DNA from: an uncultured Verrucomicrobiae bacterium
GTDB lineage: Bacteria > Verrucomicrobiota > Verrucomicrobiia > Limisphaerales > UBA11358
Assembly: GCA_963830235.1 (NCBI GenBank)
Contig: CAWHLR010000026.1
Location: 4,792-68,791, forward strand
Direction of reading: 5' to 3'
DNA length: 64,000 nucleotides
The position numbers and the translations under genes are program-made. The notes beneath the pieces were generated by a model. That model was not told the origin of the DNA, did no database searches, and saw only the letters and a list, made by a program, of their open reading frames with translations. Below are positions 3,166 to 57,419 of the stretch, piece by piece. Numbering within the stretch: the stretch's first letter is position 1; every line of letters begins with the position of its first letter.

Positions 3166-3216
3166 TCCGCCCAAACGAAATTCGACGAAAGCCCCGGAAC
3201 GCGATAACCTGTTCGT

Positions 3217-5559: not shown

Positions 5560-5587
5560 TTTTCCCCTTGAACCGTCGCGCGCCGGT

Positions 5588-8500
5588 TTATTCCTCGCCG
5601 TTGCCGGATTCGGCCTTGCGTTCCCAGCGGCGCGGCGCGCGTTCGGGCAGCGAGGTGTCGACCTTGGCGTAATATGTTTCCTCGCCAAAACGCGCGTCGG
5701 CTTCCTGCTGCAATTTCAACGACGGCATGACGCCGAAACGTTCGTTGGTGTCCATGAAGATGACTTCGCCGCCGGGACGCATGAAACACAGCAGCAACGG
5801 GCATTTGCCCGGATGCGCGGCCACGAGTTCGCGCACGGATTCCAGTTGTTCCGGTTTCAGGTGCGCGGTGTGCAGCCGCAAATGAACCTGTTTGGTGAAT
5901 TTTCTGGGCGCGTCCTCCAGCGGCAGGATTTCCTGCGGAAAAATCTTTGGGCGGTCGTCACCGGTGTTCACTTCGCCGATGACCAGGATGGCTTTGTTCG
6001 GCACGAGCAACGCGCGGTATTTGTCGTAGTTCTCGTTCATGCAAAGAATCTGCACGGAGCCTTCGAGGTCTTCGAGCGTGACCATGGAGTAAGGCTTTCC
6101 GCTTTTCTTTGACACGCCGTTTTGCACCGCCGCAATCAATCCGCCGATGGCCGTCTGGCTGCGATTCGGCAGCTCCGCGAGCTTGGCGGTGTTCGCCAGC
6201 GTGTATTTTTCCAAAATCGGCGCAAACGGCGTCAGCGGATGGCCGGTGACGTAAAAGCCGAGCAGCTCCTTTTCGTGTGCGAGCAACTCATGCTGCGGCC
6301 ATTCGGGCAGGTTGCTGATGGCGTCCGGCATGGGCGGCGCTTTTTCCTCCAGCGCGCCAAAGAGCGAGCTTTGTCCCTTCTGCCGGTCGGAAAGAATGCT
6401 CGCGGCGCGGGCCAGGGTGCGTTCGATTTGCGCGGACAACGTGGCACGCGTCTGGCCGAAGCCGTCGCACGCGCCGGTTTTGATGAGCGCCTCAAGTGTT
6501 TTCCGGTTCACCGTGCGGCCATCCGCGCGCTCGCACAGATCCGAAAGCGAGGTGAATTTTCCGCGTTCGTTCCGGGCTTTCAAAATGGATTCCACCGCGA
6601 CTTCGCCCACGCCCTTGATCGCGGCGAGGCCGAAGCGGATGGCCTTGCCGTCGCGCGCCGGGGCGAAGTGGACCAGGCTCTCGTTCACATCGGGGCCGAG
6701 GACCTCGATGCCGAACGCCCGCGCCTCGTTGATGTACTGGCTCAACTTGGCGGTATCCGCCATGTCGTTGGTCATCATCGCGCAGAAAAATTCGACGGGA
6801 TAATTGGCCTTCAGATAGGCGGTCTGATACGCGACGATGGCGTAGGCGGCGGCGTGCGATTTGTTGAAGCCATAGCCGGCGAACTTTTCCAGCAAATCGA
6901 AAATCTCGTTCGCCTTTTTTTCGGGGATCTGGTTTTTATCCCTGCAGCCCTTGACGAAAATGGCGCGTTGCTTGGCCATTTCCTCCAGCTTCTTTTTGCC
7001 CATGGCGCGCCGGAGCAAATCCGCGCTGCCAAGCGTGAACCCGGCCAGCAACTGGGCGGCCTGCATCACCTGTTCCTGGTAAATCAAAATGCCGTAGGTC
7101 TCGCGCGCAATCGGTTCGAGCAGCGGATGTTCGTATTTGATCTCGATTTCACCGTGGCGACGCTTGATAAATTCAGGAATCAGCTCCATCGGGCCGGGCC
7201 GGTAAAGCGCGACCAAGGCGGTGATGTGTTCAACGGAACTGATTTGAAACTTGCGGCACAAATCGCGCATTCCGCCGGATTCCAACTGGAACACGCCGAG
7301 TGTTTCCGCGCGGTTGAGCAGGTCGTAGGTCTTTTGGTCGTCGAGCGGCAGATGGTCAATCGGCACCTCGATGCCGTGCGTGCGCTTGACCATTTCGCAG
7401 GTGTTGCGGATGACGGTGAGCGTCTTCAGGCCGAGAAAATCCATCTTCAGCAGGCCCAGCTCGCCGACGGGATTCATCGCGTATTGCGTGACGAGCGTGC
7501 CGCTTTCGTCCTGCTTGAGCGGCAGCAAATTCACCAGCGGCTGATCGCCGATGACGACGCCGGCGGCGTGGACGGAGGCGTTGCGCGTGATGTCTTCCAG
7601 GATGAGCGCGGTGTCAATCAATTCGCGCGTGACCTCCTCGGTTTGGTAGGCCTCCTTGAATTCCGGCGACTGCTTGAGCGCCTTCGTCAAATCCATTTTC
7701 AGATCGAACGGAATCATCTTGGCCAGCCGATCGCACTCGCCGTAGCTCAGGCCCATCACGCGGCCCACATCGCGCACGACGGATTTCGCGCCCATCGTGC
7801 CGAACGTGATGATTTGCGCGACGGAATCGCGGCCGTATTTCTCGCGGACATACTCAATGACATCGGCGCGCCGGTCGTCCGCAAAATCAATGTCAATATC
7901 CGGCGGGTTGACGCGCTCGGGATTGAGGAAGCGCTCGAACAGCAGGCCGTAGCGGATCGGGTCCACGTTGGAAATTTCCAGCAGGTAGGTGACGATGGAA
8001 CCGGCGGCGGAACCGCGCGCCACACAAGCAATGCCGTGTTCGTGACCGTACCGGATGAAATCGCCAACAATGAGAAAGTAACTGATGAAACCTGTCTTTT
8101 CGATGACCTTAAGCTCCAGTTGCAGCCGATCCAAAACGGCCTTGATGGCGGCAGCGATGGCGGGGTCTTTTATGTCGTAGCAGCCGACGTGAGGAGGCTC
8201 ATTCTTTTTCTGCCCGGCATCTTCCGAATCTGATTTGAGCCTCGTTACCTCGGCTGCTACGGAAGCATCGAAAGTCGGCAATCGCGTTGGATCGTCAATT
8301 CCCTCGAACGACAAATTCCTTGCCCTCGGCTTTGGCGTGAAGCGTGTAGCGCCGGAGCAATCCTTCCGCAACCAACTTGCGCAAATAACCTTCGCGCGTG
8401 AAATGTTCCGGCGGCGCAAAGACCGGGAAGTGCAATTTGCTGAAATCGATTTCCAGGTTGCACTGCTCAGCGACGGCGAGCGTGTTTTTGACGGCCTCGG

Positions 8501-9287
8501 GCGTTTCGGCGAAGCGCGCCTTCATTTCCTCCGCCGTGCGCAGGTAAAACTGCTCCGGCTCGTAGCGCATCCGTTTCGTCTCGGCCAGTTGCGTCTGCGT
8601 GCCGATGCAAATCAGGCAATCATGCGCGTGCGAATGGCTTTTCTCGATATAATGAACGTCATTCGTTGCGATGAGTTTGAGGCCGAATTCCTTCGCCCAC
8701 AGGATCAAATGCTTGTTGACCTTGGCTTGTTCGGCGATGCCGTGGTTTTGCAGTTCGAGATAAAAATTGTCCGGGCCGAGCGTCTGCTTGAACCAATCCA
8801 CCGCGTCGCGCGCCTTGTCCAACTGGTCCTTGAGGATCCAATCCGGGATTTCGCTCGCAAGGCAGCCGGACATGGCGATCAGGCCTTCCTTGTGCGCGGC
8901 GAGGATTTCCTTGTCAATGCGCGGCTTGTAATAATAACCCTCCAGATGCGCGGCGGTGGTGAGCTTGATGAGGTTTTTGTAGCCGGTCTCGTCCTTGGCC
9001 AGCAAGCCGAGATGATGATAAACATCGCGTCCGCCGCTGCTGGTTTTCTTTTCCAGCCGGCTGCCGGGTGCAACATAAACTTCGCAGCCGATGATGGGTT
9101 TGATGCCCTTTTCGCGCGCCGCCTTGTAAAAATCAATGACGCCATGCATCGCGCCGTGGTCGGTGATGGCGAGCGCGGGGAATTTCAGTTCATGCGCCTT
9201 GTCCACCAGCCGGTCCAGACGGCAGGCGCCATCGAGCAATGAATACTCGGTGTGCAGATGCAAATGGACAAAATCGGCGTGCGACAT
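5588..9287 (-). CDS. dnaE: DNA polymerase III alpha subunit; the reading frame is broken by a one-nt shift near 8300 (true frameshift or sequence error)
   Basis: The N-terminal PHP-domain ORF 8295-9287 (HLHLHTEYSLLDG) is followed by the remainder in ORF 5588-8419 (FLIVGDFI, FERFLNPERVNPPDIDIDF). The two ORFs overlap in different frames. Confidence 0.9.
8177..8260. repeat. REPIN-like inverted doublet inside dnaE (in-frame, 84 nt)
   Basis: GTAGCAGCCGACGTGAGGAGGCTC (8177-8200) faces GAGCCTCGTTACCTCGGCTGCTAC (8237-8260). It belongs to the same family as the solo REP at 34677-34700. Confidence 0.75.
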
Positions 9288-10530: not shown

Positions 10531-11643
10531 TCAACCCTTCTTGAAGAAATCTTTGATGACCGCGGCGACGCGCTGGATTTGCGGGTCGGTCAATTCAGGG
10601 AAAATCGGCAGGCTGAGGCATTCGCGCGCGGCTTTTTCGGCTACGGGAAAATCACCGGGCTTGTGGCCGAGGCTGGCATAGCATTTTTGCAGGTGCAGCG
10701 GCAGCGGGTAATGCAGCGCGCAACCGACGCCATTGGCTTCGAGATGTTTCTTCAAATCATCGCGGCGCGGATGGCGCACGACGTAGAGATGATACGCGCT
10801 TTCGGCCCAGGCGGCTTCGCGCGGCAGTTGCAGCGGGGTGTCCGCCAGCAGTTCATGGTAGCGATGCGCCACGCGGCGGCGTTCCGCCGTCCATTTCACC
10901 AGATGTTTCAGCTTCACGCCGAGCACCGCGCCCTGAATGCCTTCCATCCGGTAATTGTATCCGACTTCGTCGTGATAATAACGCACGGTGGAGCCGTGTT
11001 CGCGGAGGGCGCGGGCGCGTTTGTCGAAAGCCGGGTTGTTGGTCAACAGCGCGCCGCCCTCGCCGCAGGCGCCGAGGTTCTTGCCCGGATAAAAACTGAA
11101 GCAGGAAATTTCGCCGAACGTGCCGACGATTTTGCCCTTGTATTTTGCGCCGTGCGATTGGGCGGTGTCTTCAACGAGCGGCAGCTTGTGTTTGCGGCAA
11201 ATCGCCAGGATCGGATCGAGGTCGAACGGATGGCCGTAGAGATGCACAGGCATGACGGCCTTGGTGCGCGGCGTGATGGCGCGTTCGACCAGTTTGGGGT
11301 CGAGATTGAAGATGGCGTCGTCAACATCCACAAAGACCGGTTTCGCGCCGACGTAGGAAATCGCCCAGCTCGTGGCGACAAACGTGAAGGGCGTGGTGAC
11401 GACCTCGTCGCCAGGGCCGACGCCGAGCAGCAGCATGGCCACGTGCAACGCCGAGGTGCCGCTGTTGAATCCGGCACAGTGTTCCGCGCCGATGAATTTG
11501 GCGAAGTCCTTTTCAAACTGCGCCACGTCGGGGCCGAGGCAAAAGGAGCAGTTGTCAATGGTCCGCGCAACGGCGGCGTCCAGTTCTTTGCGGAGCGGGC
11601 GCAATTGCGCCACCAGGTCGAGATAGGGAATTTTGTCGTCCAT
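10531..11643 (-). CDS. DegT/DnrJ/EryC1/StrS-family sugar aminotransferase
   Basis: IPYLDLVAQLRPLRKELDAAV, GDEVVTTPFTFVATS, and a PLP-type fold pattern. Confidence 0.85.
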   Translation of the reverse strand: MDDKIPYLDLVAQLRPLRKELDAAVARTIDNCSFCLGPDVAQFEKDFAKFIGAEHCAGFNSGTSALHVAMLLLGVGPGDEVVTTPFTFVATSWAISYVGAKPVFVDVDDAIFNLDPKLVERAITPRTKAVMPVHLYGHPFDLDPILAICRKHKLPLVEDTAQSHGAKYKGKIVGTFGEISCFSFYPGKNLGACGEGGALLTNNPAFDKRARALREHGSTVRYYHDEVGYNYRMEGIQGAVLGVKLKHLVKWTAERRRVAHRYHELLADTPLQLPREAAWAESAYHLYVVRHPRRDDLKKHLEANGVGCALHYPLPLHLQKCYASLGHKPGDFPVAEKAARECLSLPIFPELTDPQIQRVAAVIKDFFKKG

Positions 11644-22148: not shown

Positions 22149-23083
22149 TCAAACTTTCGTGGCGTGCCGGCGATTCCCCAAAATTGATCCGCGCAATTTT
22201 CGGAACGGCTGCATGATTTTCCGCTGGCACCAAAGAAAGGCATACCGGTCCCGGCCCAGAGCGCCCATCATCTCTTTGAGAGAGCTTTCGGCTTCCGCGC
22301 CGGAATTTTTCCGCAGTTCGTAAATTTGATCAAACAGCGCCTGCTGCCACTTGGATTCCGGCAAACCCAGCCGTTCAAACCAATGCTTGAACAGCGCCAG
22401 ACTTTCCGCTGAAGCCACGCCGCAGCGGCGGTCGGTCTCGCTTTGCTGCGCCCCATGCCGCCGGAAGGCGCTCAACGGCTCCGCCACATACGCAAACCGC
22501 CCCTGCTCCAACAGGTGAAACCACAAATCCAGATCCAGCCAGTGACAGAGTTGCTCATCGTAACCTCGCGCCGCCTGCTCCCGCCGGAACATCACCACCG
22601 ATGGTTCCCCAATCAGGTTCGACAGCCGGTCCAGACACTGCACCATCACCCGCCGCCGTCCACGATCCCCGGTTCAAAATATTCGCGCAACTCAATCACC
22701 CGCGAACCCTCGTCCAAAACCTGCAACATCGAACTGACCAGGGAAACTTCTGGGTGATGATCCAGCACCTCCGCCATTTTTAGGATGGCCAGCGGGGAAA
22801 TCAGTTTGTCGTCCTGCAAAACGTATTTGATGTATTCCCCCTTTGCCGCCCGCAGACAACAGTTGAAATTCCGTGCCAGACCCAGATTGGCCGGATTCTT
22901 CCACCACCGGATGCGGGAATCCCTGGTCGCATAACGTTCCACCAATGCCACCGAGCCATCCGTTGAGGCGTCGTCAGCGATCAGAATTTCCATATCCGCA
23001 AAATCCTGGGCCAGAATGGACTCCAGACACTCCGCCAGGAACGCCTCGCCGTTGCAGACTGGCACCAGAACGCTGACTTTCAT
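22149..23083 (-). pseudogene. glycosyltransferase family 2, frameshifted paralogue of 25035-25973
   Basis: Two ORFs (22646-23083 and 22149-22649) together align with the intact paralogue. One G is missing at about 22651-22657 (cgccgccgtc here, cgccggccgtc in the paralogue). Confidence 0.8.
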
Positions 23084-25038: not shown

Positions 25039-25973
25039 TTCTTTTTTGGGCGGTTGTTTGCCAGGCGCAAAGCTTGTCTGCGCAATTCTTGAAACGGCCG
25101 TGTGATTTTCCGGTGCAGCCAAAACAGAACATACCAGCCGGTCCCGAACACCTGTTTCAGCCTCGCGCGCGACGCCTGCGTCCGTGTTCCACGCCGCCGG
25201 CGTGACAAGTAAATCTGCGCGAAGACCGCGCGGCGCGTCATCATCTCCCGCAACCGCGGCCTGGCATAATAATTCGCGAGCAAAATCAAATCTTCGTCTT
25301 CGGTTTCACCGCTCTGGCAGTGGATCTCGCTTTGCTGCGCCCCATGCCGCCGAAAGGCGCTCAACGGCTCCGCCACATACGCAAACCGCCCCTGTTCCAA
25401 CAGGTGAAACCACAAATCCAGATCCAGCAATTGATGGAATTGCTCATCGTAACCTCGCGCCGCCTGCGCCCGCCGGAACATCACCACCGACGGTTCGCCG
25501 ATCAGGTTCGACAGCCGTTCCAGACACTGCACCATCACCCGCCGGCCGTCCTCGATCCCCAATTCAAAATATTCGCGCAACTCAATCACCCGCGAACCCT
25601 CGTCCAAAACCTGCGACATCGAACTGACCAGGGAAACTTCAGGGTGATGGTCCAGCACCTCCGTCATTTTTAGGATTGCCTGCGGGGAAACCAGCTTGTC
25701 GTCCTGCAAAACGTATTTGATGTATTCCCCCTTTGCCGCCCGCAGACAACAGTTGAAATTCCGTGCCAGACCCAGATTGGCCGGATTCTTCCACCACCGG
25801 ATGCGGGAATCCCTGGCCGCGTAACGTTCCACCAATGCCACCGAGCCATCCGTTGAGGCATCGTCGGCGATCAAAATTTCCATGTCCGCAAAATCCTGGG
25901 CCAGAATGGACTCCAGACACTCGGCCAGGAACGCCTCGCCGTTGCAGACTGGCACCAGAACGCTGACTTTCAT
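25035..25973 (-). CDS. glycosyltransferase family 2 (intact paralogue)
   Basis: MKVSVLVPVCNGEAFLAECLESILAQDFADMEILIADDASTDGS. Confidence 0.85.
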   Translation of the reverse strand: MKVSVLVPVCNGEAFLAECLESILAQDFADMEILIADDASTDGSVALVERYAARDSRIRWWKNPANLGLARNFNCCLRAAKGEYIKYVLQDDKLVSPQAILKMTEVLDHHPEVSLVSSMSQVLDEGSRVIELREYFELGIEDGRRVMVQCLERLSNLIGEPSVVMFRRAQAARGYDEQFHQLLDLDLWFHLLEQGRFAYVAEPLSAFRRHGAQQSEIHCQSGETEDEDLILLANYYARPRLREMMTRRAVFAQIYLSRRRRGTRTQASRARLKQVFGTGWYVLFWLHRKITRPFQELRRQALRLANNRPKKK

Positions 25974-26004: not shown

Positions 26005-26307
26005 TCAGTCGCCAAACAATTTTTTCAATTGTTCGCGGGCGGCGGCTTCGCGCCGGTTGTCTCCGGCTTTCGGCGTCCAGGCCCGGCGCGCAAATTCAAA
26101 ATACTCGCAGAAATTGCCCAGGTGCTTTTCCATCACCGGCTCGGCCCGCCGTTCGCGGCATTGCTGCGCCACGCGCGGATCGTAATGCGCGCAGTTCAGG
26201 CAGACGCGCAGGTCGGCCCGGCATTTGAAACAGCTTTCGCCGCGTCCGGGCTGGCCGGTCAGCGTCCATTCCTCGCCGCAGTTGTGGCAATGACGGGTCA
26301 AAGACAT
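26005..26307 (-). CDS. zinc-ribbon / Cys-rich small protein
   Basis: CHNCG...CFKC...CLNC...C...FC cysteine pattern in 100 aa. Confidence 0.6.
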   Translation of the reverse strand: MSLTRHCHNCGEEWTLTGQPGRGESCFKCRADLRVCLNCAHYDPRVAQQCRERRAEPVMEKHLGNFCEYFEFARRAWTPKAGDNRREAAAREQLKKLFGD

Positions 26308-26389
26308 TTACGATTTGTGATTTACGATTGACGATGTCACGACACAAAAGATTAACCTCGTAAATCGCCAATCGTAAATCGTAAATTAG
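26305..26389. repeat. heptamer-array hairpin, GATTTAC family
   Basis: catttacgatttgtgatttacgattgacg faces cgtaaatcgccaatcgtaaatcgtaaat. It lies in the divergent intergenic region. Confidence 0.85.
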
Positions 26390-26404: not shown

Positions 26405-28771
26405 ATGAAAAGGGTTCTGGCGCCAATCTTCTGGCTGCTGCTTGCACTGGCCGGCGCGGACGCCTATGCCACGCTGGCGTTTCGCCGGAGCGAGCCGGTC
26501 AATTCAGCCTATATTCTCATCGCGGCGGTCTGCACCTATGCCATCGGCTACCGGTTTTATTCCAAATGGATTGCCGCGCGCGTGCTCACGCTCAATGACC
26601 GCCGCGCCACGCCATGCGAAGTCCACGACGACGGCAAGGATTTCGTGAGAACGAACAAATGGGTTGTCTTTGGCCATCATTTCGCGGCCATTGCCGGGCC
26701 GGGACCGCTGGTCGGGCCGGTGCTGGCGGCGCAATTCGGTTACCTGCCTGGCACACTGTGGATTTTAATCGGCGCCGTGCTCGGCGGCACGGTGCAGGAT
26801 TTCGTCATCTTGTTTTGCTCGATGCGGCGGGATGGCAAATCGCTCGGCCAGATGGTCAAGGAGGAATTGAATTCGCCGGTTGGCTTCATCGCGGGGCTGG
26901 CGATCCTGGCCATTCTGGTGATTATGCTCGCAGTCCTCGCACTCGTTGTGGTCAAGGCTCTCGCGGAAAGTCCGTGGGGTATTTTCACCGTTGGCGCAAC
27001 CATTCCCATCGCGTTGTTGATGGGCTGTTACCTGCGTTTCTTGCGCGTCGGAAAGATTCTGGAAGCCTCAGCCTTTGGTGTTACAATGCTGCTGCTCGCG
27101 GTGTGGGGCGGCAAACTGGTCTATGAAAATCCGCACTGGTCGCAGGTCTTTGGACTGCGCGACCTCACGGTTGCCTGGGTCATCATTGGCTACGGCGTCA
27201 TCTCCAGCAGCCTGCCGGTGTGGCTGCTGCTCGCGCCGCGCGATTACCTCAGCACGTTCATGAAACTCGGCACCATCTTCGCGCTCGCCCTCGGCATCCT
27301 GCTGCTCCTGCCCAATTTGCAAATGCCCGCGCTGACGCAATTCATTGACGGTTCCGGCCTGGTCGTGGCCGGAAAGGTTTTTCCGTTCTGCTTCATCACC
27401 ATCGCGTGTGGCGCGATTTCCGGTTTTCACACGCTCATCGCCAGCGGCACGACGCCGAAACTCATCACTCGTGAAGGTTATGCGCGGCCCATCGGTTATG
27501 GCGCGATGTGCTGCGAATCCTTCGTGGCCATCATAGCGATCATTGCCGCCTGCACCCTGGACCCGGGCGTCTATTTCAGCATGAACGTCAAAGGCGATCC
27601 CGCCGCCACCGTGGCCCTGGTCGCCTCGCATGGTTTTCCGGTGACCACCGGCCAGATGGCTGCGCTGGCCCATGAACTCGGCGAGAAAACCCTGTTCGGT
27701 CGCACTGGTGGCGCGGCCACGCTGGCCGTCGGCATGGCGCACATTTTTTCCAAGGCCGTCAACGGCCGCTGGCTCGACCTCTGGTATCACTTCGCCATCA
27801 TGTTTGAGGCGCTGTTCATCCTGACCACGGTGGACGCCGGCACGCGCGTGGGACGTTATCTGATTCAAAGTGTGCTCGGCCGGGTTTGGAAACCCCTGGG
27901 CGACCCGAAATATTTTCTCACCACACCGGTGGCCGCCGCGTTGATGGTAGGCGCGTGGGGATATTTTTTGATTCAAGGCGTGCGTGATCCGCTCGGCGGC
28001 GTCAACTCGCTCTGGCCGCTGTTTGGTATTGCCAACCAGATGCTTGCCGCCATCGCGTTGTGCCTGGCCACAACCGTCATTTTGAAAATGCAGCTTGGAG
28101 CGTCGGCCTCCGGCACGGCACGAATCGAGAAGCCCGCCGTGCCGGAGGCCGACGCTCCAAAACATTTGCCTGCGCTCGCGCTCATCACGTTCATTCCACT
28201 GGTCTGGCTGGCAGCGGTAACATTCACGGCAGGAGTTGAGAAAATTTTCCATCCCGACCCGCGCATCGGATTTCTGGCGCAGGCGCAAAAGCTGGCTGAA
28301 AAAGCACCCGCCTTGCAAAGTGCGCTCACCAACGCGAACGCTGCGGGTGATGCGGCCGCAATTGACACCGCTCAAATAGCATTGCGCGCCAACCGCACGC
28401 TCCGGTTCAACAACCTTCTCGACGCCGCCGTGGCCGGAATTTTTCTGGCTCTGGTCATCGCGATTGTTCTGTTAAGCTTGCGCGAGTGGATTTTGCTGCT
28501 GTCGCGGCGCAAACCGGCGGTGTTGCACGAAACCGGGCCGGTCTGGCTGCCGGATTACGCCGTCGTGGAGGGCGGGCGCAAGTTCAGCGGCGCGGCCGGC
28601 GCCGCCGCCCTGGCCCTGGCGCTGGCGAAGGAATGGTCCGGCGAATCGCATCTGGAACGCGCGCAGCAGCAGCAAACGCAGGCGGTTTGCCAATGCCATT
28701 CCGCGAACGCACAGCAGGTTTACGTCGAAGCCACGGAACAGCGGTTCAACGGTGTGCGGCGGTGTTGTTAA
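26405..28771 (+). CDS. cstA: carbon starvation protein A family transporter with a YbdD/YjiX-like C-terminal tail
   Basis: Polytopic protein with CstA-like blocks (VVFGHHFAAIAGPGPLVGP, ISGFHTLIASGTTPK). The C-terminus ends in ...EQRFNGVRRCC. Confidence 0.85.
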   Translation: MKRVLAPIFWLLLALAGADAYATLAFRRSEPVNSAYILIAAVCTYAIGYRFYSKWIAARVLTLNDRRATPCEVHDDGKDFVRTNKWVVFGHHFAAIAGPGPLVGPVLAAQFGYLPGTLWILIGAVLGGTVQDFVILFCSMRRDGKSLGQMVKEELNSPVGFIAGLAILAILVIMLAVLALVVVKALAESPWGIFTVGATIPIALLMGCYLRFLRVGKILEASAFGVTMLLLAVWGGKLVYENPHWSQVFGLRDLTVAWVIIGYGVISSSLPVWLLLAPRDYLSTFMKLGTIFALALGILLLLPNLQMPALTQFIDGSGLVVAGKVFPFCFITIACGAISGFHTLIASGTTPKLITREGYARPIGYGAMCCESFVAIIAIIAACTLDPGVYFSMNVKGDPAATVALVASHGFPVTTGQMAALAHELGEKTLFGRTGGAATLAVGMAHIFSKAVNGRWLDLWYHFAIMFEALFILTTVDAGTRVGRYLIQSVLGRVWKPLGDPKYFLTTPVAAALMVGAWGYFLIQGVRDPLGGVNSLWPLFGIANQMLAAIALCLATTVILKMQLGASASGTARIEKPAVPEADAPKHLPALALITFIPLVWLAAVTFTAGVEKIFHPDPRIGFLAQAQKLAEKAPALQSALTNANAAGDAAAIDTAQIALRANRTLRFNNLLDAAVAGIFLALVIAIVLLSLREWILLLSRRKPAVLHETGPVWLPDYAVVEGGRKFSGAAGAAALALALAKEWSGESHLERAQQQQTQAVCQCHSANAQQVYVEATEQRFNGVRRCC

Positions 28772-37830: not shown

Positions 37831-37902
37831 CATTTGCGATTTACGATTTGCGATTGACGCGTCCTCTGCCATTTACTCGTAAATCGTATATCGTGAATCG
37901 CC
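37831..37902. repeat. heptamer-array hairpin, GATTTAC family
   Basis: catttgcgatttacgatttgcgattgacg faces tttactcgtaaatcgtatatcgtgaatcgcc. Confidence 0.85.
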
Positions 37903-38538: not shown

Positions 38539-39066
<528 letters not shown>

Positions 39067-39073
<7 letters not shown>

Positions 39074-39965: not shown

Positions 39966-40070
39966 GGGGCAAAACATCGAACATCCAACATCGAACGCTG
40001 AACATCGAACGCTTGTTGAAAATGCCCCGATTCGATGTTGGGAGTTCGATGTTCGATGTTCAGCGTTTCC
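39966..40070. repeat. GAACATC-heptamer inverted pair without cargo
   Basis: ggggcaaaacatcgaacatccaacatcgaacgctgaacatcgaacgc ... gccccgattcgatgttgggagttcgatgttcgatgttcagcgtttcc. Confidence 0.8.
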
Positions 40071-40529
40071 GATTAAGTATTTTGGTAACATCCGTCGTGA
40101 TTTGCTTCTGAGTTGGGTGTATGAGTGGCATCCAAGTGACCCCGTCAGACAACCCGAAATGTCCGCAATGCGGCACGCCGCTGCCGGCCGGCGCGCTCGC
40201 CGGCCTTTGCCCCGCCTGCCTGCTGAAACAGGGCGCGGCCGACGAAACCGCCACGGGCGGGCAGACGCCGCCGTTCCAGCCGCCATCCATCGCCGAACTG
40301 GCGCCGTTGTTCCCGCAGCTCGAAATTCTTGAACTCATTGGCAAGGGCGGCATGGGCGCGGTCTATAAGGCGCGGCAAAAGGAACTGGATCGCTTTGTCG
40401 CGCTGAAAATTCTTCCGCCGGGCATCGGCCGCGACGCCGCCTTCGCCGGGCGTTTCGCGCGCGAAGCCAGGGCGCTCGCGAAGCTGAATCACCCGGGCAT
40501 CGTCACGCTTTACGAGTTTGGGCAGGTCG

Positions 40530-40610
40530 GTAGTGGCACAGGCGTCCCGCCTGTGAGTGTCGGAGAAACCGCAAACGAGAAACTCACAGGCAAGATGCCT
40601 GTGCCACTAT
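40530..40610. repeat. REPIN doublet (GTGGCAC family) in-frame inside the kinase (81 nt)
   Basis: GTAGTGGCACAGGCGTCCCGCCTGTGAGT faces ACTCACAGGCAAGATGCCTGTGCCACTAT. It is translated as GSGTGVPPVSVGETANEKLTGKMPVPL. Confidence 0.85.
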
Positions 40611-40848: not shown

Positions 40849-40909
40849 GGAGTTCCGCCTTCAGGCGGTTCCGACGCGACAAACCCGGACCGGCTGAAGC
40901 CGGAACTCC
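40849..40909. repeat. 61-nt palindromic element that disrupts the kinase frame
   Basis: ggagttccg-ccttcagg-cgg...ccggctgaagccggaactcc. The outer 9-bp arms are ggagttccg/cggaactcc, and there is an in-frame TGA inside. Confidence 0.85.
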
Positions 40910-49249: not shown

Positions 49250-49974
49250 TGGCTGAAGCGAGTTCATCACCGGAAAAAACGGGCCCGCCGGCCAGGAAAA
49301 GAAAATCCGGCGTGATTGTGCCGCACCAGGCGAAGTGGCATCAACGCATCGGCGCGTTTTTGGTGTTCATTTCGTTGCGCACGCTCATGGCCACAGTGCG
49401 CTGCCGTCTGCGCAACCCCTCGGAATTCCTGGCGCCCAACGCCCCCGGCCCGGTGATTGTTTGTTTCTGGCACAACCGGCTGGCGTCCTGCATCAAAGTT
49501 TATGAGAGCTTTCGCAAGCCGCACGCGTCCACCAGGGGCATGGCGGCGCTGATCAGCGCCAGCCGGGACGGCGCGTTTCTCACGGGCATTCTGGAATGGT
49601 TTGGCGTGCAGGCGGTGCGCGGATCCAGCAGCCGGCGCGGCCCGCAGGCGTTGCTCGAACTCACCACCTGGGCCGAGCGCAACTATGACCTGACCATCAC
49701 GCCGGACGGCCCGCGGGGGCCGTGCTACCAGTTTCAGGAGGGCGTGATGTCGCTGGCACAGGTAACGGGTTTGCCGGTGATGCCGATTGCGTTCAACGTG
49801 AATTGGAAACTGCGCGTGAAAAGCTGGGACCGGTTTCAGATTCCGCTGCCCTTTGCCTGTTGTGAAGTCGTCGTCGGCAAGGTCATGCGCGTGCCAGCCG
49901 AAGCCACGGACGCCGAACGCGAGTCGCTGCGTCAACAGCTTGAAGCCGACCTGCGCGCCATTTCCGGCGATTGA
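49249..49974 (+). CDS. DUF374-type lysophospholipid acyltransferase family protein
   Basis: CFWHNRL...ISASRDGAFLTGILEWFGVQAVRGSSSRRG...ITPDGPRGP. Confidence 0.7.
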   Translation: MAEASSSPEKTGPPARKRKSGVIVPHQAKWHQRIGAFLVFISLRTLMATVRCRLRNPSEFLAPNAPGPVIVCFWHNRLASCIKVYESFRKPHASTRGMAALISASRDGAFLTGILEWFGVQAVRGSSSRRGPQALLELTTWAERNYDLTITPDGPRGPCYQFQEGVMSLAQVTGLPVMPIAFNVNWKLRVKSWDRFQIPLPFACCEVVVGKVMRVPAEATDAERESLRQQLEADLRAISGD

Positions 49975-50001
49975 AATTCGGAGGGGCGTCACGGTTCTTG
50001 A

Positions 50002-50033
50002 CACTCAACTTCCAACCCTCAACCCTCAACTCC
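50002..50033. repeat. CTCAACC-type heptamer array just upstream of the priA start
   Basis: cactcaacttccaaccctcaaccctcaactcc, preceded by TTGACA at 49998-50003. Confidence 0.6.
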
Positions 50034-50035
50034 GC

Positions 50036-52978
50036 ATGATTGCCCGCGTCAGTCTTGAAATCGCGCTCCGCAAGGAGTTCGATTATTTGATTCCGCCCGG
50101 ATTGGCGGGGCAAATCGAGGTGGGCAGCCGCGTGCAGGTGCCGTTCGGCCCGCGAAAAATTTTAGGCTGCGTCACCGCGCTCGCCGAGGAATCGGCTCAC
50201 ACCAATCTCAAACCCATTTTGAAAGTCATCGGGGCGCAGACGCTTGTCACGCCGAAGGTTCTGAAGCTTGCGCGCTGGATTGCCGAGTACTACTGCTGCG
50301 CACCGGAAACCGCGTTGAAATCCGTCTTGCCCGAGGCCGTGCGCAAGGAGGAATCCGGCTGGCGCGAGCGGCTGTTTGTCCGCGCGCTGCCGGTGAGCGG
50401 CGAATTTCCGAAGCTGCCGAAACGCCAGCAGGAAGTCTGGAACATCATCGAGGAGCGACGCGAGCTGCCATTGTCGGAACTGGTCGAACTGGCCGAAACC
50501 ACCGCCGCCACCATCCGCAAACTCGAAGACCGCGGACTGCTTGAGGTCGCCCCGCAAATTTCCGAACGCGATCCGTACGCCCGCGAACACATCCTGCCGT
50601 CGCAACCGCTCCCGTTGAACCCGGCACAGGCTGCCGCGCTGGAGAAGATTGAGACGGCTATGAATGGCCGTTGTAGCACCCGCGTCCCGCGGGTGGAGGC
50701 GGGCGTCGCGCCCGCCTCTCGTCCGACAGTCAAGCCCGGCCCGATATGGGAAACCACCGCCCGCAAACGCAGCCTGCCGCATTTTGAAATTCCGGGTTTT
50801 ACCTATCACGTCACCTGGCAAACGCAGGACAAACTGATTCTTTCGCCCGAAGCCCGCGCAAAGACTTTGGAAGCCTGCCATTTCTGGCACGGGAACAAAA
50901 TCAAATGTTACGCCGCGTGTGTAATGCCCGACCATGTTCATTTGCTGATTCAACCTTTGCCGGTTCAGGAAGCCGGGAAAGAAGGCGTTCATCCGCTCTC
51001 GGAAATTCTTCACAGCATCAAATCATTTTCCGCCCATGAGGTGAACAAGGCCATGAAACGCAGCGGTCCGGTCTGGATGGATGAATCGTTTGACCGGATG
51101 ATCCGTTCGGAGGCCGACTTGCACAAGACGTGGGATTACATCTGGAACAATCCGCGCAGGATTGGATTGGTTGGACCAATGGAGGAATATCCTTACCTTT
51201 GGACGCCAACCGCACCCGACACACCCCAAGGTGTCCGGCGCGACGCCGGACACGACCCGCGGGACGCGGGTGCTACACCACAGACATCGGACGGCGCAAA
51301 GTCATCTCAAGTTTTCCTGCTTCATGGAGTGACCGGCAGCGGCAAAACCGAGGTTTATCTGCAAGCCCTCGCCCACGCGCTCGAACAGGGCAAGGGCGCC
51401 ATTGTGCTTGTGCCGGAGATTTCGCTCACGCCGCAGACCGTCGAGCGGTTTAAAGCACGTTTCAGCTCCGGCAAACTCCAGACGCTTGTTGCCGTGCTGC
51501 ACAGCCACCTGTCCGCCGGCGAACGTCACGATGAATGGCACAAAATCCGCCAGGGCCGCGCACGCATCGTCATCGGCGCGCGCTCGGCGATTTTTGCGCC
51601 GGTTGAACCGCTCGGCCTCATCATCGTGGACGAGGAACACGAGCACTCTTACAAGCAGGAGGAGGCGCCGCGCTACCACGCCCGCGACGTGGCCATCATG
51701 CGTGGCCAGATGGAAAACGCCGTCGTCGTGCTCGGTTCGGCCACGCCGTCGCTGGAAAGTTATTACAATTGCAAGAAGGGCAAATTCACGCTGCTCGAAC
51801 TGCCGGAGCGCGTGGACGACCAGAAAATGCCGCACGTCCGGGTCGTGGACATGCGGCAAGCCGCGTCCCAGCAGCGCGGAAAGGAAGGCATCCCGATTTT
51901 TTCGCCGCAACTCAAGGAAGCCATCACCCAGCGGCTCGAACGCGGCGAGCAGACGATTTTGTTTTTGAACCGGCGCGGTTATTCGACGTCGCTGCAATGC
52001 CCGAAGTGCGGCGAGGTTGTTCAGTGTCCGAATTGCAGCCTCGCGCTCACGTTTCACCGGCAGGAACAAAAGCTCGCCTGTCACATCTGCGGCCACGTCG
52101 CGCCCGTGCCGTCGGTTTGCCCAAATGCGAAATGCAAAAACCCGGCGATCCGTTTTGCCGGCACGGGCACGCAGCGGGTCGAGGAAACGCTTGCCAAGCT
52201 TTTCCCGCAGGCGCGCATCAAGCGCATGGACGCCGACACGATGAAACGCAAGGACGATTACCGGAAGGTGCTCGGCGATTTCCGCACGGGCAAAACCGAC
52301 ATCCTCGTCGGCACACAGATGATCGCCAAGGGGCTGCATTTCCCGAACGTCACGCTCGTCGGCATCATTTACGCCGACCTCGCGCTGCATCAGCCGGATT
52401 TTCGCGCGGGCGAACGGACCTTCCAACTGCTCACGCAAGTCGCCGGACGGGCCGGGCGCGGGGATGTCGAGGGCGAGGTGTTCGTGCAGGCATTCGCGCC
52501 ATTTCATCCGGCGATTCAATATGCGCGCCGCCACGACTTCACCGGCTTTTATGAACAGGAAATTGAATTCCGCGAGCAACTGAAATATCCGCCCGTCAGC
52601 CGCGTGGCGTTGCTCACGCTCAAGGGCCGCAACGAAGACAAGGTGAAATTTAGCGCCGAACACCTGAAACGGGAGCTGGAGAAAAATCTTGTGGCGGCGG
52701 TCTGTGACCGCCGCCAATCAGATGAAAAGAATGCAACTGCAAAAAACAAGGATAGTGCGGCGGTCACAGACCGCCGCTACAGCTTCGGTGATTTAATCAT
52801 CGCCGGTCCGGCGCCGGCGCCGTTGCTGCGCGCGGAAACTTTTTATCGGTACCAGATCATGCTGCGGACGCGCGCGATGAGCAAATTGAGCCAGGCCCTG
52901 GCAAAAATCATTGGGACGCTTGCCCTACCGGATGACGTGACCCTGGCGGTGGACATTGACCCGGTTAATTTGGGGTAG
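50036..52978 (+). CDS. priA: primosomal protein N' (replication restart helicase) carrying two in-frame insertions
   Basis: N-terminal ARVSLEIALRKEFDYLIP...VQVPFGPRKILG, Walker A HGVTGSGKTEVY, DEEH box IIVDEEHE, and the Cys cluster CPKCGEVVQCPNCSLALTFH...CHICGH. Confidence 0.9.
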   Translation: MIARVSLEIALRKEFDYLIPPGLAGQIEVGSRVQVPFGPRKILGCVTALAEESAHTNLKPILKVIGAQTLVTPKVLKLARWIAEYYCCAPETALKSVLPEAVRKEESGWRERLFVRALPVSGEFPKLPKRQQEVWNIIEERRELPLSELVELAETTAATIRKLEDRGLLEVAPQISERDPYAREHILPSQPLPLNPAQAAALEKIETAMNGRCSTRVPRVEAGVAPASRPTVKPGPIWETTARKRSLPHFEIPGFTYHVTWQTQDKLILSPEARAKTLEACHFWHGNKIKCYAACVMPDHVHLLIQPLPVQEAGKEGVHPLSEILHSIKSFSAHEVNKAMKRSGPVWMDESFDRMIRSEADLHKTWDYIWNNPRRIGLVGPMEEYPYLWTPTAPDTPQGVRRDAGHDPRDAGATPQTSDGAKSSQVFLLHGVTGSGKTEVYLQALAHALEQGKGAIVLVPEISLTPQTVERFKARFSSGKLQTLVAVLHSHLSAGERHDEWHKIRQGRARIVIGARSAIFAPVEPLGLIIVDEEHEHSYKQEEAPRYHARDVAIMRGQMENAVVVLGSATPSLESYYNCKKGKFTLLELPERVDDQKMPHVRVVDMRQAASQQRGKEGIPIFSPQLKEAITQRLERGEQTILFLNRRGYSTSLQCPKCGEVVQCPNCSLALTFHRQEQKLACHICGHVAPVPSVCPNAKCKNPAIRFAGTGTQRVEETLAKLFPQARIKRMDADTMKRKDDYRKVLGDFRTGKTDILVGTQMIAKGLHFPNVTLVGIIYADLALHQPDFRAGERTFQLLTQVAGRAGRGDVEGEVFVQAFAPFHPAIQYARRHDFTGFYEQEIEFREQLKYPPVSRVALLTLKGRNEDKVKFSAEHLKRELEKNLVAAVCDRRQSDEKNATAKNKDSAAVTDRRYSFGDLIIAGPAPAPLLRAETFYRYQIMLRTRAMSKLSQALAKIIGTLALPDDVTLAVDIDPVNLG
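50673..51276 (+). mobile_element. RAYT-like Y1/HUH transposase module with inverted GTAG-REP flanks, embedded in-frame in priA
   Basis: GTAGCACCCGCGTCCCGCGGGTG (50673-50695) faces ACCCGCGGGACGCGGGTGCTAC (51255-51276). Inner hairpins sit at 50696-50718 and 51231-51253. The segment encodes PDHVHLLIQP and WDYIWNNPRRIGL. Confidence 0.8.
52691..52780. repeat. REPIN doublet (GCGGCGGTC-TGT-GACCGCCGC family) in-frame inside priA (90 nt)
   Basis: GTGGCGGCGGTCTGTGACCGCCGCC faces GCGGCGGTCACAGACCGCCGCTAC. It is translated as VAAVCDRRQSDEKNATAKNKDSAAVTDRRYS. Confidence 0.85.
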
Positions 52979-53082
52979 CACAGGCCTCCGGCCTGTTGTT
53001 TCGTGCGTCGCGCCCGAAACCGTCGCGGGACGAACGCCTATTTCACATTTGCCCGATTGCCTGCAACCTGTGTCGCCCAACG

Positions 53083-53128
53083 GAATTCGGCGGGACGCCG
53101 AATTCAACCCGCGAGACGCGGGTGCTAC
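53083..53128. repeat. bipartite REP, same family as the priA RAYT flank
   Basis: gaattcggcg-gga-cgccgaattc followed by ACCCGCGAGACGCGGGTGCTAC. It overlaps the 3' end of the gene at 53125-53520. Confidence 0.8.
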
Positions 53129-53537: not shown

Positions 53538-54095
53538 TTACGCCATTTTAATTCCCCTTTGCCACAGATCGAAGTGATATAGCGCAACGACGACAAGGGG
53601 GTGGCTGATTTTTTCGTCAGCGACGAGTTTCGTCACTTCCGACACCGGCACGAGGCGCGTTGACAGATCCTCGCCGTGATCGAATTCCACGCCGTGCTTC
53701 AAGCGGCAGTTTTCAATCAGCACGGTGTAAGTTTTGTTGCTCAAGATGGCCGGGTTTGACCAGATCTGTCCAAGCAGGCGCGCGTTCCCGCCTTCGTAGC
53801 CGGTCTCCTCGCGCAACTCGCGCACGGCGGTCGCCACCGGGTCGGTCTCGCCCGGGTCCATCATGCCGCCGGGAATTTCGAGTTCCACTGTGTTCGAGCC
53901 GTGGCGGTATTGCTCCACCATCACCAGTTTTTGGTCGGGCGTCACGGCGACGACGTTGACCCAGTTGACGCTTTCAAGGACGTAAAAATCATGTTCCTTG
54001 CCGGTGCGCGGCGAGATTTTTACATCCGAGCGCAGCTTGAAGATGCGGAAATCGCCGACGAGCTTCGAACTGATTTGTTTCCAGGGCTTAACCAT
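53538..54095 (-). CDS. NUDIX hydrolase (ADP-ribose pyrophosphatase-like)
   Basis: Nudix box GGMMDPGETDPVATAVRELREETGY. Confidence 0.85.
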   Translation of the reverse strand: MVKPWKQISSKLVGDFRIFKLRSDVKISPRTGKEHDFYVLESVNWVNVVAVTPDQKLVMVEQYRHGSNTVELEIPGGMMDPGETDPVATAVRELREETGYEGGNARLLGQIWSNPAILSNKTYTVLIENCRLKHGVEFDHGEDLSTRLVPVSEVTKLVADEKISHPLVVVALYHFDLWQRGIKMA

Positions 54096-54166
54096 TTTCG
54101 ATTTATGATTTACGATTTACGCGTCCGGCGTATGGGTCGCGTCAATCGTAAATCTTAAATCGAAAA
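54096..54166. repeat. heptamer-array hairpin, GATTTAC family
   Basis: tttcgatttatgatttacgatttacgc faces gcgtcaatcgtaaatcttaaatcgaaaa. It abuts the NUDIX start codon. Confidence 0.85.
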
Positions 54167-54167
54167 T

Positions 54168-55648: not shown

Positions 55649-55687
55649 AATTTTCCAGACCCGCAGCCAAAAGTCACGCGCGGAATT
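55649..55687 (-). promoter_or_regulatory. conserved 39-nt upstream motif, copy A (possible promoter)
   Basis: Identical at 37 of 39 positions to 56308-56346. On the coding strand it reads AATTCCGCGCGTGACTTTTGGCTGCGGGTCTGGAAAATT and ends 8 nt before the ppiA ATG. Confidence 0.45.
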
Positions 55688-55694
55688 TGCCATT

Positions 55695-56300
55695 TCAAGC
55701 CATCGGCGGCGGCGCGTTTTTGTCTTCGTGCGATTTTTGGTCCTCGTTCAACGCGCTCGTGATCAAGCTCCCTTGCGACGCGATGTGGGAACGCCACCAC
55801 ATTAAAATCGCCAGAGCAACCACCAAAACAACCACGCCACCAGCCAAAATACCCTTGCGACCGGCCCAGGAACTTTCGGTCGGTGGAGCAGCGGCATTTG
55901 CTGGTGTCAGCGGCTTGATGGTGGATTCAGTTTGAGCGGGAACAGCGCTGGTTTGCGCCGATGGCTCGATGACCGGTGGTTTCACCTCGTTGACCGCCGC
56001 GGGTGCGGGCGCCGAGGTTGCGGTCATGGTTGCCGGGGCAACGGCCTTGGGCGATGTGCGCGGCGCAGCGGGGACACGGGGTTGAGCGGGAACGGCACTG
56101 GTTGGCGCCGATGGCACAACGGCCGGTGGTTTTGCCTCGTTGGCTGCTGCGGGCACCGGGGTTGCGGCCGGCGGCGGGACGGCAACTTCGCCGGCGTTGG
56201 GGATGGCGCTGGTTGGCGTGTTGGTTTTGGTTTCCTGACCCAAAGCCGTAACCATTCCGGCGGCAAGGACGACGGTGTAAATGTAAATCCAAGCTTTCAT
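55695..56300 (-). CDS. proline-rich repeat protein with signal peptide and C-terminal TM anchor
   Basis: MKAWIYIYTVVLAAGMV signal, repeated modules (AANEAKPPAVVPSAPTSAVPAQ / AAVNEVKPPVIEPSAQTSAVPAQ), and TM segment ILAGGVVVLVVALAILMWW. Confidence 0.65.
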   Translation of the reverse strand: MKAWIYIYTVVLAAGMVTALGQETKTNTPTSAIPNAGEVAVPPPAATPVPAAANEAKPPAVVPSAPTSAVPAQPRVPAAPRTSPKAVAPATMTATSAPAPAAVNEVKPPVIEPSAQTSAVPAQTESTIKPLTPANAAAPPTESSWAGRKGILAGGVVVLVVALAILMWWRSHIASQGSLITSALNEDQKSHEDKNAPPPMA

Positions 56301-56307
56301 ATAAGTG

Positions 56308-56346
56308 AATTTTCCAGACCCGCGGCCAAAAGTCACGGGCGGAATT
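56308..56346 (-). promoter_or_regulatory. conserved 39-nt upstream motif, copy B
   Basis: AATTCCGCCCGTGACTTTTGGCCGCGGGTCTGGAAAATT ends 7 nt before the ATG at 56300. Confidence 0.45.
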
Positions 56347-56387
56347 AAACCTTTTTTCGTTGAACCAGCCATAAAGCTGCCACCCGG

Positions 56388-57419
56388 CTAACGGGTGCGG
56401 CGCAACAGGAAAACCACCAGACCACCCGCCAGAAATGCCACGCCAATGGCCAGGACGTTTTTAAAGCTCATCCCGGAACTTTCAGGCGGTGGGGCGGGGG
56501 CTTTTGCCGGCGTCGGTGGCGCGGCGGTGATATTGGTTTGAACGGGAATGGGGCTGGTTGGCGCCAACGGCACTACATCTGGCCGTTTCACCTCGTTGAC
56601 TACCGCGGGTGCGGGCGCTGATGTTGCAGCCATCGGCGGCGGATTGGTCGGTGCCGGTTTCGGCGCCGACGGCACGCGATTGGTGCGGGGCGTGCCGATA
56701 ATGATGAGTGACGGGACGGTGGATCGTGGCGGTGCGGACACAGCCGCAACCGACGGCGCGTGGGTAACCTCGGGCAGGGCAGGAAACTCCGGAAGGCTCA
56801 CCGGCTCGGGCGGGAAACTCACCATGCACCCGGCGTATTGGCCGCGTTGCGAGCGCAACGCTATCACGACGGGCAGCCGCTCCTTCTGCCGTTCTTTCTG
56901 GCGTTGCTGTAAAATTTGATTGATGCCGGCATCGAATGGTGTTCCGTGAATTCCCCCCCTGCCGTCGCAAAAAATCAGCACCGTCAGCCGCTCGGAACGC
57001 TGCACGACCTGATTCAGCAGCGGTTGCAGCGCGGCCAAACCCGTTTCGTTCAAGTAGTGCTGTTTTTTGACAAACTTGACGATGTTCGACGCAATCACCG
57101 GCGCATCCTCCGGCTTCCAGTATTGCAACGGAAACTGTCCGGTGTGCAAACTCTGGTCGAACGTCCACACGCCAACGCTGTCCCCCGGATGCAACTGCCC
57201 GCCCGCACCGGTCGCCAGCAGGGCGTCGAGCGCGCTTTGCACCGCCGGCAAACGCGCTCTCATGTCCGACGAAGTGTCAAAGATGAGCAGAAATCGGTTG
57301 TCCACCTTCCGCTCCGCCGGTTGCGCGTGCAATGCCGTAACCCAAAGAACTCCGGCGAACAGCACCGCGAGAACCAACGCCTGGCGGACCATCCGATTTT
57401 GGTGCGTTCGTGTCTTCAT
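56388..57419 (-). CDS. VWA-like domain protein with a proline-rich linker and C-terminal TM anchor
   Basis: Signal peptide, then FLLIFDTSSDM (MIDAS-like DxSxS) ... LTVLIFCDG. The Pro-rich module ATSAPAPAVVNEVKRPDVVPLAPTS is shared with the neighbouring gene. Confidence 0.6.
   Translation of the reverse strand: MKTRTHQNRMVRQALVLAVLFAGVLWVTALHAQPAERKVDNRFLLIFDTSSDMRARLPAVQSALDALLATGAGGQLHPGDSVGVWTFDQSLHTGQFPLQYWKPEDAPVIASNIVKFVKKQHYLNETGLAALQPLLNQVVQRSERLTVLIFCDGRGGIHGTPFDAGINQILQQRQKERQKERLPVVIALRSQRGQYAGCMVSFPPEPVSLPEFPALPEVTHAPSVAAVSAPPRSTVPSLIIIGTPRTNRVPSAPKPAPTNPPPMAATSAPAPAVVNEVKRPDVVPLAPTSPIPVQTNITAAPPTPAKAPAPPPESSGMSFKNVLAIGVAFLAGGLVVFLLRRTR

Follow-up and report, generated by a model that had tools for sequence, protein, structure and literature searches.

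A GTAG-tagged REP doublet translated in frame within a loop of the replication-restart helicase PriA of an uncultured verrucomicrobial bacterium

How does a repeat whose very name, repetitive extragenic palindrome (REP), places it outside genes come to be translated within the gene for a replication-restart helicase, and does the protein or the cell make any use of it? The question is raised by a 90-nt element at positions 52691-52780, near the 3' end of priA, in a stretch of 64,000 nt of DNA (the window) from an uncultured Verrucomicrobiae bacterium (assembly GCA_963830235.1, contig CAWHLR010000026.1, positions 4,792 to 68,791 of the forward strand). The answer favoured here, to which we give a probability of about 0.85, is that the element is a REP doublet forming hairpin (REPIN), a GTAG-tagged REP pair that lacks a transposase gene, was mobilised by a REP-associated tyrosine transposase (RAYT) and has been kept in a tolerant loop of PriA, where the peptide it encodes is carried mostly as a passenger.

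The element and its place in PriA

The gene and the parts of the element are as follows.

50036..52978, plus strand: host gene priA, likely start ATG at 50036 (MIARVSLE..., as in homologues), 980 codons
52691..52714, plus strand: left REP arm, head GTGG and then the hairpin GGCGGTC-TGT-GACCGCC; encodes VAAVCDRR
52715..52756, no strand: A-rich spacer of 42 nt, of which 22 are A (52%)
52757..52780, minus strand: right REP arm, on that strand GTAGC-GGCGGTC-TGT-GACCGCC-GC; the plus strand encodes AAVTDRRY

Read along the plus strand, the left arm is GTGGC-GGCGGTC-TGT-GACCGCC-GC and the right arm GC-GGCGGTC-ACA-GACCGCC-GCTAC, with the 21-nt core GCGGCGGTCTGTGACCGCCGC at 52694-52714 being the exact reverse complement of 52757-52777. 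A preliminary description of this DNA, made from its letters alone, had placed here two exact inverted hairpin cores on either side of an A-rich spacer, and in these respects it is borne out: two 24-nt hairpins lie in inverted orientation at the position it gave. Each arm alone folds into a hairpin with a stem of 9-11 bp and a loop of 3 nt, and together they form an inverted repeat with 25-nt arms (52690-52714 and 52757-52781, 96% complementarity) that reaches one base beyond the 90 nt on each side. The core did not recur in any of 100 dinucleotide-preserving shuffles of the window, and the 102-nt region around the element has a folding energy of -35 kcal/mol as DNA (z = -9.9 against shuffles) and of -60.5 kcal/mol as RNA (z = -11.3). 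In Rfam no family reached its threshold, the sub-threshold matches being of a generic long-hairpin type (microRNA-precursor models). A classical miniature inverted-repeat transposable element, with terminal inverted repeats and a target-site duplication, does not agree with the flanks (...AATCTT and AGCTTC...), which carry no such duplication at the ends of the element. Across copies, the flanks have in common no more than a preceding T and a following A, both of which extend the palindrome.

The priA frame is open from 49853 to 52978, and the element is translated within it as VAAVCDRRQSDEKNATAKNKDSAAVTDRRY(S), corresponding to residues 886-915 when counted from the ATG at 50036. All of the PriA domains are detected, namely the 3' DNA-binding domain, the DEAD domain, the Cys-rich zinc ribbon, Helicase_C and PriA_C, and the open reading frame (ORF) scores above the NCBIfam PriA equivalog cut-off. 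It is the C-terminal domain that is interrupted: the Pfam PriA_C match is split between profile positions 27 and 28 and resumes at 28 right after the insert, and the TIGR00595 match ends at residue 946 of the ORF counted from 49853, the insert beginning at the next residue. In an alignment with PriA of Klebsiella pneumoniae, 37 residues around the insert map between residues 676 and 685, which in the solved structure form a short loop leading from the first helix to the next strand of the C-terminal domain. The insert thus occupies a short surface loop and adds about 29-30 hydrophilic residues to it. An AlphaFold model of the C-terminal half, built with 41 close homologues, has a mean predicted local distance difference test score (pLDDT) of 59, with the insert below 50; at this confidence the model does not support fold searches, and it is taken here as no more than a hint that the insert may be disordered. 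With GTAG/GTGG heads, hairpin arms, an inverted doublet, in-frame read-through and a split PriA_C, the description of the element as a REPIN in frame near the C-terminus of priA holds.

What do related genes carry at this site? The comparison with PriA orthologues, which the preliminary description had proposed, covered the 119 nearest anchorable homologues of PriA, which show 72-98% identity in the C-terminal half; every one of them comes from a Verrucomicrobiota-type metagenome bin. In about 20 of the 119 the site is empty (...LEK.L.EFKDLI...). The element of the window is present at this site in three homologues, P0001, P0005 and P0033, of which the last is the most distant and the last two have shorter spacers, and the remainder have different inserts at the loop, in recognisable groups. 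At least eight other, unrelated palindromic elements are found at the loop in related genomes. The DNA of the inserts was compared at seven loci.

L120 (P0005), 11417-11482: the same REPIN, GTAG at both heads, 18-nt spacer, 66 nt in total
L121, priA loop: empty site
L122, priA loop: GTGG-headed doublet with a different stem
L123, priA loop: hetero-doublet of two different GTAG/GTGG hairpins
L124 and L126, priA loop: inverted arrays of heptamer repeats
L125, priA loop: GGAGC-headed hairpins enclosing two further hairpins

In L120 the head of the left arm is GTAG in place of the GTGG of the window, and the spacer of the window holds a 24-nt in-frame segment that has no counterpart there. In P0079 an apparent remnant of one family is followed by another family. 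Across the C-terminal 402 residues of a 41-sequence alignment, the indels at least four residues long cluster at query positions 307-316, all but two of them lying there, and the C-terminal half of PriA has no other indel hot spot than the loop. In a neighbour-joining ordering, empty and filled forms are mixed; the tree carries no support values and hence gives no count of independent gains.

A few further observations concern the compared loci themselves. The priA gene is called as at least two ORFs in L121, L122, L123 and L126, which may reflect sequencing indels or real splits by elements; in L122 and L123 the split comes after the DEAD domain, and in L126 it separates the 3' DNA-binding region from the helicase core, which is where the RAYT cassette of the window is located. 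In L124, a contig of 9.2 kb holds two inverted copies of priA (2969-4627 and 4703-6457), each bordered on its outer side by NUDIX genes, an arrangement that is probably an artefact of fold-back during assembly. Inverted tandem heptamers form a second palindromic class that is also present in the window (AACATCG..., ATTTACG...; 39966-40082, 38541-38581, 39034-39072, 54094-54167, 26305-26386 and 37831-37898), and arrays of the same type, built from other heptamers, are those at the priA loop of L124 and L126.

The repeat family and its transposases

The 90-nt element is a member of a GTAG-tagged REP/REPIN family with a wide distribution. When one genome per species was scanned with the query GCGGCGGTCNNNGACCGCCGC, at least 119 loci were returned, most of them in Verrucomicrobiota and Acidobacteriota assemblies. 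Among the matches listed, a GTAG head (GTA upstream or TAC downstream) accompanies 70 of 121 hairpins, where ~3% would be expected by chance, and 36 heads-outward doublets with spacers of 4-76 nt are present, both priA copies included, this count having been reached after the removal of one spurious pairing. The highest number of loci in one metagenome-assembled genome (MAG) among these matches is six (isolate MFD00008.bin.2.151). The identical GTAG-headed 21-nt core occurs in two phyla (for instance L024, L042, L045, L052 and L054 as against L012, L015 and L028); such sharing between Verrucomicrobiota and Acidobacteriota points to cassette transfer between phyla or to mis-binned contigs.

The connection to a transposase is provided by two Verrucomicrobiae MAGs (L100, at 4109-4624, and L101), in which RAYT genes scoring 99.8 and 98.2 bits against the NF047646 cut-off of 80 lie between identical arms. 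These arms are the same as those of the 90-nt element as far as CAAT after the left hairpin, and it is for this reason that the element is taken to be a REPIN, that is, both ends of such a cassette with no transposase between them. The features by which REPINs are recognised can be compared with this locus one at a time: there is a short palindrome of 20-40 nt with a stem-loop, GTAG/GTRG immediately precedes the palindrome on its 5' side (the right arm has GTAGC, on the minus strand; the left has GTGGC, and GTAGC in L120), two inverted REPs with a short spacer are foldable as one hairpin, and the same REP surrounds a RAYT gene in other genomes (L100, L101). An extragenic location is lacking, as the element is inside priA and translated in frame.

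The priA frame of the window also takes in a RAYT, and a further element closes the gene.

50672..51277, plus strand: RAYT cassette of 606 nt with TGTAGC-hairpin ends, in frame in priA, between the LNPAQ motif and Walker A
52975..53128, no strand: transposase-less element of 154 nt with a two-hairpin end structure as in the RAYT cassette

The RAYT in the window scores 87.1 bits against the NF047646 cut-off of 80. The GTAG head of the 154-nt element provides the stop codon of priA (TAG, 52976-52978). A single ORF that runs from the PriA N-terminus through a REP-derived linker, the RAYT and another linker into the helicase is found in at least five other assemblies (P0121-P0125, L125), with 65-85% identity over the query region and with the HUH and Tyr motifs intact. 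In P0139, P0145 and P0062 the corresponding priA site holds a RAYT of a second, different family. Between them, the two priA sites hold two families of RAYT and at least eight of REP type. A literature search on RAYT together with PriA found no paper linking the two, and in our view this in-frame fusion is more striking than the 90-nt element itself.

Reading frame and element length

How can a gene that receives such an element stay open? Part of the answer lies in the sequence of the repeat. A frame that enters through the GTAGC head has one open course, GTA GCG GCG GTC, read as VAAV.DRR; the other two are stopped, one by the TAG within the GTAG head and the other by the TGA that the final T of the loop makes with the GAC of the stem, and at L100 the upstream gene terminates at exactly this TGA of the loop-stem junction. 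The exit arm has three open frames, all of which are used (AAV.DRRY, GHRPPLQ and RRSQTAAT), and the entry reading VAAV(C/Y/S)DRR is seen in 7/7 independent in-frame copies. With one open entry frame and open exit frames, about one random insertion in nine would therefore leave a gene open. Among the matches listed, 6 of the 34 doublets outside priA lie within verified genes. If most of the bacterial DNA concerned is assumed to be coding, this number suggests purging or avoidance.

The preliminary description had gone further. It counted four intragenic doublets in the window, of 63, 84, 81 and 90 nt, noted that all were multiples of three, contrasted them with a 61-nt element at a broken gene and saw in the pattern the mark of purifying selection. 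Five in-frame doublets are found in the window, with lengths here given between the ends of the inverted repeat.

4627-4703: in the P-type ATPase (copper-type), 77 nt; GGAGC heads, within the HAD/nucleotide-binding region
8176-8261: in DnaE, 86 nt
28095-28160: in CstA, 66 nt; GGAGC heads, after profile position 538 of 560
40531-40609: in the Ser/Thr kinase, 79 nt; GTGG-headed, in frame inside the N-lobe
52690-52781: in PriA, 92 nt; 90 nt when measured from GTGG to CTAC

Two of these genes provide comparators.

8177..8260, minus strand: DnaE doublet measured between its heads, 84 nt (GTAGC..GCTAC), in frame (VAAEVTRLK...HVGCY), located in the variable linker that joins the PHP and palm domains
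40849..40909, plus strand: 61-nt GGAG-headed doublet at the frame break of the kinase gene, between Pkinase profile positions 148 and 155

Pfam matches extend over the in-frame inserts of the ATPase and the kinase, and in DnaE, where the insert falls in the variable linker, the regions on both sides align to solved DnaE structures. For CstA, a Pfam search of the 202 residues past the doublet matched no family, and the internal position of that doublet in a functional protein is unproven. The single kinase gene carries two doublets, at 40531-40609 in frame and at 40849-40909 where the frame changes.

Two definitions of the boundaries were compared, the ends of the inverted repeat and the GTAG/CTAC heads. 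The lengths of 84 nt for DnaE and 90 nt for PriA reappear with the second definition and with no other, and those of 63 and 81 nt do not reappear; adding the flanking T and A to the heads does not rescue the rule. The 61-nt element is indeed at the kinase frame break, as had been said, yet it is not the sole non-multiple of three, since elements of 77, 86, 79 and 92 nt stand in open ORFs, and the 79-nt in-frame element is of the same residue class (1 modulo 3) as the 61-nt one that breaks the frame. Copies from the family of the 90-nt element that are in frame in other genomes, verified by Pfam matches across the insert or on both sides of it (L033 by motif continuity alone), have the following GTAG-to-CTAC lengths.

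L015, aminotransferase: 71 nt, in frame
L030, GH127 glycosidase: 97 nt, in frame
L086, class-III aminotransferase: 67 nt, in frame
L033, leucyl-tRNA synthetase: 67 nt, in frame (motif continuity alone)
L075, RibD: 66 nt, in frame
L042, linker of a P-type ATPase: 54 nt, in frame

An absence of any excess of multiples of three among intragenic copies was the outcome that the preliminary description had itself named as speaking against its rule, and this is what the comparison across genomes gave: among the copies listed, a small sample spread over many genomes, multiples of three make up 3/7 of the intragenic (priA taken once) and 8/28 of the intergenic elements (Fisher p = 0.38). The rule is accordingly rejected, on these figures together with the inverted-repeat lengths in the window, and the length pattern, which depends on the boundaries and is contradicted by the in-frame copies of 67, 67, 71 and 97 nt elsewhere, does not stand as a mark of purifying selection. 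The lengths came out as multiples of three because of where the ends were placed. A net insertion of 3n nucleotides follows in any case from the recognition of an element within an intact ORF, so that the regularity is already implied by the word intragenic. It is reasonable, as a general idea, that insertions which break the frame should be purged, and this has been stated before, in that genes inactivated by insertion are presumably lost from the population (PMC3733652).

The broken frames of the window also deserve comment. The minus-strand gene dnaE is in two frames, with the PHP domain in the ORF at 8295-9287 and the rest in that at 5588-8521, and the shift between them (8290-8335) occurs some 35-70 nt upstream of the DnaE doublet, in ordinary sequence with no repeat. 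This break is either a single-base indel of the assembly or a genuine frameshift, unrelated to repeats, in an essential gene. As dnaE is broken where there is no repeat, frame breaks are not specific to such elements, and the coincidence of the 61-nt element with a broken gene is weak evidence. Elsewhere in the window there are other repeats: direct copies of ~635 nt at 22320-22954 and 25209-25844, 2.9 kb apart, with 96% identity in one 300-nt block and 79% in the other; a unit of 150-171 nt present three times at 55866-56642 (61-74% identity); and, in the same region as these units, a 39-nt direct repeat at 55649-55687 and 56308-56346 (95% identity).

Passenger, target or functional part

In the reading favoured here, the REPIN would represent both ends of a RAYT cassette from which the transposase gene has been removed, and a RAYT, a single-strand DNA transposase of the HUH/Y1 type, would have mobilised it into priA. 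The copies that survive would be those that entered in the open frame, restored the frame of the host gene and fell within a tolerant loop, and the peptide they encode would be mostly a passenger. At the protein level constraint is relaxed, with the hairpin sequences near the family consensus: in the closest pair, 6 of 30 encoded residues differ, as against 1.3% in the PriA flanks.

Several observations weigh against this account. Filled and empty sites differ by a net 63 or 87 nt and by changes in the flanking codons, such that the inserted unit is not exactly delimitable; the 64-kb window has one doublet of the family of the 90-nt element; and the RAYT inside the window has REP ends that differ from the arms of that element. 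More telling is the rate at which the element changes. The 66 nt common to the window, L130 (P0001) and L120 (P0005) show 5-6 differences per pair, and at the third codon positions of the flanking priA sequence 18% differ between the window and L130 and 29.5% between the window and L120. Between the window and L120 the element has changed at 5/66 positions as compared with 109/369 third positions (Fisher p = 6e-5), which is about four times slower, and across the three sequences its divergence is uncoupled from that of priA. Were the element a pure passenger, it should decay faster. The slow change may stem from structural constraint on the DNA or RNA, from conversion by other copies of the REP or from re-insertion at a hot spot, and three sequences are too few to decide among them.

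Does the loop fill so often because elements are guided to it? Under such targeted insertion, a local feature of the DNA would home elements to the site, or a resident REP would attract, or be replaced by, other REPs, a possibility that we regard as tentative and on balance doubtful. The at least eight element families in one loop are what it would produce, as are the compound or hetero-doublet inserts of L123 and L125, the remnant with a second family in P0079 and the two different RAYT families at the second priA site. The empty-site DNA of L121, moreover, forms one of the two perfect 7-bp hairpins in that gene, but three other empty-site loci (L127-L129) lack that hairpin, and a native hairpin is accordingly rejected as the target. 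No target motif is seen beyond the T before GTAG and the A after CTAC, both of which may be bases of the element. The loop is, furthermore, the only indel-tolerant place in this half of PriA, and therefore a filter alone would be sufficient. The simplest reading is that the loop is the one permissive site, to which nesting or replacement of elements may add its share of the pattern.

The slow change raises the question of whether the insert has been co-opted, with selection keeping either the peptide or the hairpins, as structures in DNA or mRNA, in the service of priA or the cell. This we judge to be unlikely. The arms and shared spacer that lag behind synonymous sites, together with a divergence that does not scale with that of the gene, are what such selection would leave, and the element is kept in homologues down to 82% PriA identity. 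Set against this, about 20 close homologues do without any insert and others have unrelated elements at the same site, the peptide changes fast in the closest pair, a 24-nt indel is tolerated in the spacer, conversion by REP copies or re-insertion at a hot spot could equally explain the slow change, and three sequences make up the whole comparison. A more elaborate proposal, which is something of a long shot, treats priA in this clade as a heritable landing pad for REPs and RAYTs and not as a random victim; the PriA-RAYT chimera may then be a working protein that carries REP processing to stalled forks, and selection or conversion may hold the arms near consensus. It is compatible with the fusion being one ORF in at least six assemblies, with the intact HUH and Tyr motifs and with the arms changing more slowly than synonymous sites.

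Might priA instead be a decaying pseudogene, with a RAYT cassette and a REPIN in it and a frame that is open by coincidence? Two mobile-element inserts within the gene and the broken frames of dnaE and the kinase gene in the same window would suit this idea, but we consider it very improbable given the 980 open codons with a third-position GC of 0.72, like that of other genes, the presence of every PriA domain with a score above the equivalog cut-off, flanking residues that are 88-98% identical to those of homologues, and the fact that both inserts are in frame in independent assemblies. Finally, a chance palindrome or an assembly artefact, for which nothing speaks beyond the general error-proneness of metagenome assemblies, is refuted by the shuffles (core in 0/100, fold z about -10), by the recurrence of the family in many genomes and by the same element being at the same site in three independent assemblies.

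How does the passenger REPIN of priA compare with known systems? In Escherichia coli, the GTAG located 5' of the hairpin in REPs and bacterial interspersed mosaic elements (BIMEs) is reportedly the recognition and cleavage determinant of the Y1 HUH transposase TnpA-REP, and E. coli REPs are extragenic, unlike the 90-nt element. The REPINs of Bertels and Rainey in Pseudomonas fluorescens SBW25 are likewise said to be essentially extragenic, with hundreds of copies per genome, whereas here the copy is translated. The Rickettsia palindromic elements (RPEs) of Ogata et al. 2000 are reportedly mobile palindromes that are read in frame in conserved or essential genes, dnaE included, and would add surface peptides that the host protein tolerates; one of them, RPE-1, is said to be longer, AT-rich and of the CGTC type. 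They are of a different sequence family and phylum from the 90-nt element and can be compared with it by way of life only. Like the latter, the SBW25 REPINs consist of two inverted REPs with a short spacer that form one long hairpin, and the same REPs are found around a RAYT, as in L100 and L101 here (PMC3337134). RPEs are related to CGTC REPs, and CGTC repeats have no dedicated transposase (PMC3733652).

The closest precedent is the study that defined GTAG-tagged REPs and reported their occurrence within genes in several species (Di Nocera, De Gregorio, Rocco 2013, BMC Genomics 14:522; PMC3733652). There, intragenic GTAG REP dimers encode 20-30 residues and are commonest in Opitutus terrae, a verrucomicrobium, many intragenic REPs are in replication and repair genes, and recB of two Xanthomonas species has different REPs at about the same site (PMC3733652). 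The present element resembles those REPs in having a GTAG (sometimes GTGG) head beside a stem of 6-9 bp, and those dimers in being inverted, with spacers of 20-100 bp, intragenic and encoding 20-30 residues. It differs in that priA is missing from the text and tables of that study, which likewise does not describe one codon-level site with at least eight element families across close relatives (PMC3733652). The type of event is thus already described, in the verrucomicrobial intragenic GTAG dimers of 2013, and what is added is the case of priA.

For the wider use of such data, the divisible-by-three regularity, being a product of boundary choice, is a warning against the genome-wide application of a length rule. 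For the biology of the family, the locus provides a well-documented example of a REP doublet translated inside a replication-restart helicase, in which the repeat's own sequence, open in one frame on entry and in all three on exit, limits the insertions that survive. The inserts at the priA loop, together with the in-frame RAYT, make up a natural system in which tolerance of repeated insertion can be set against targeting.

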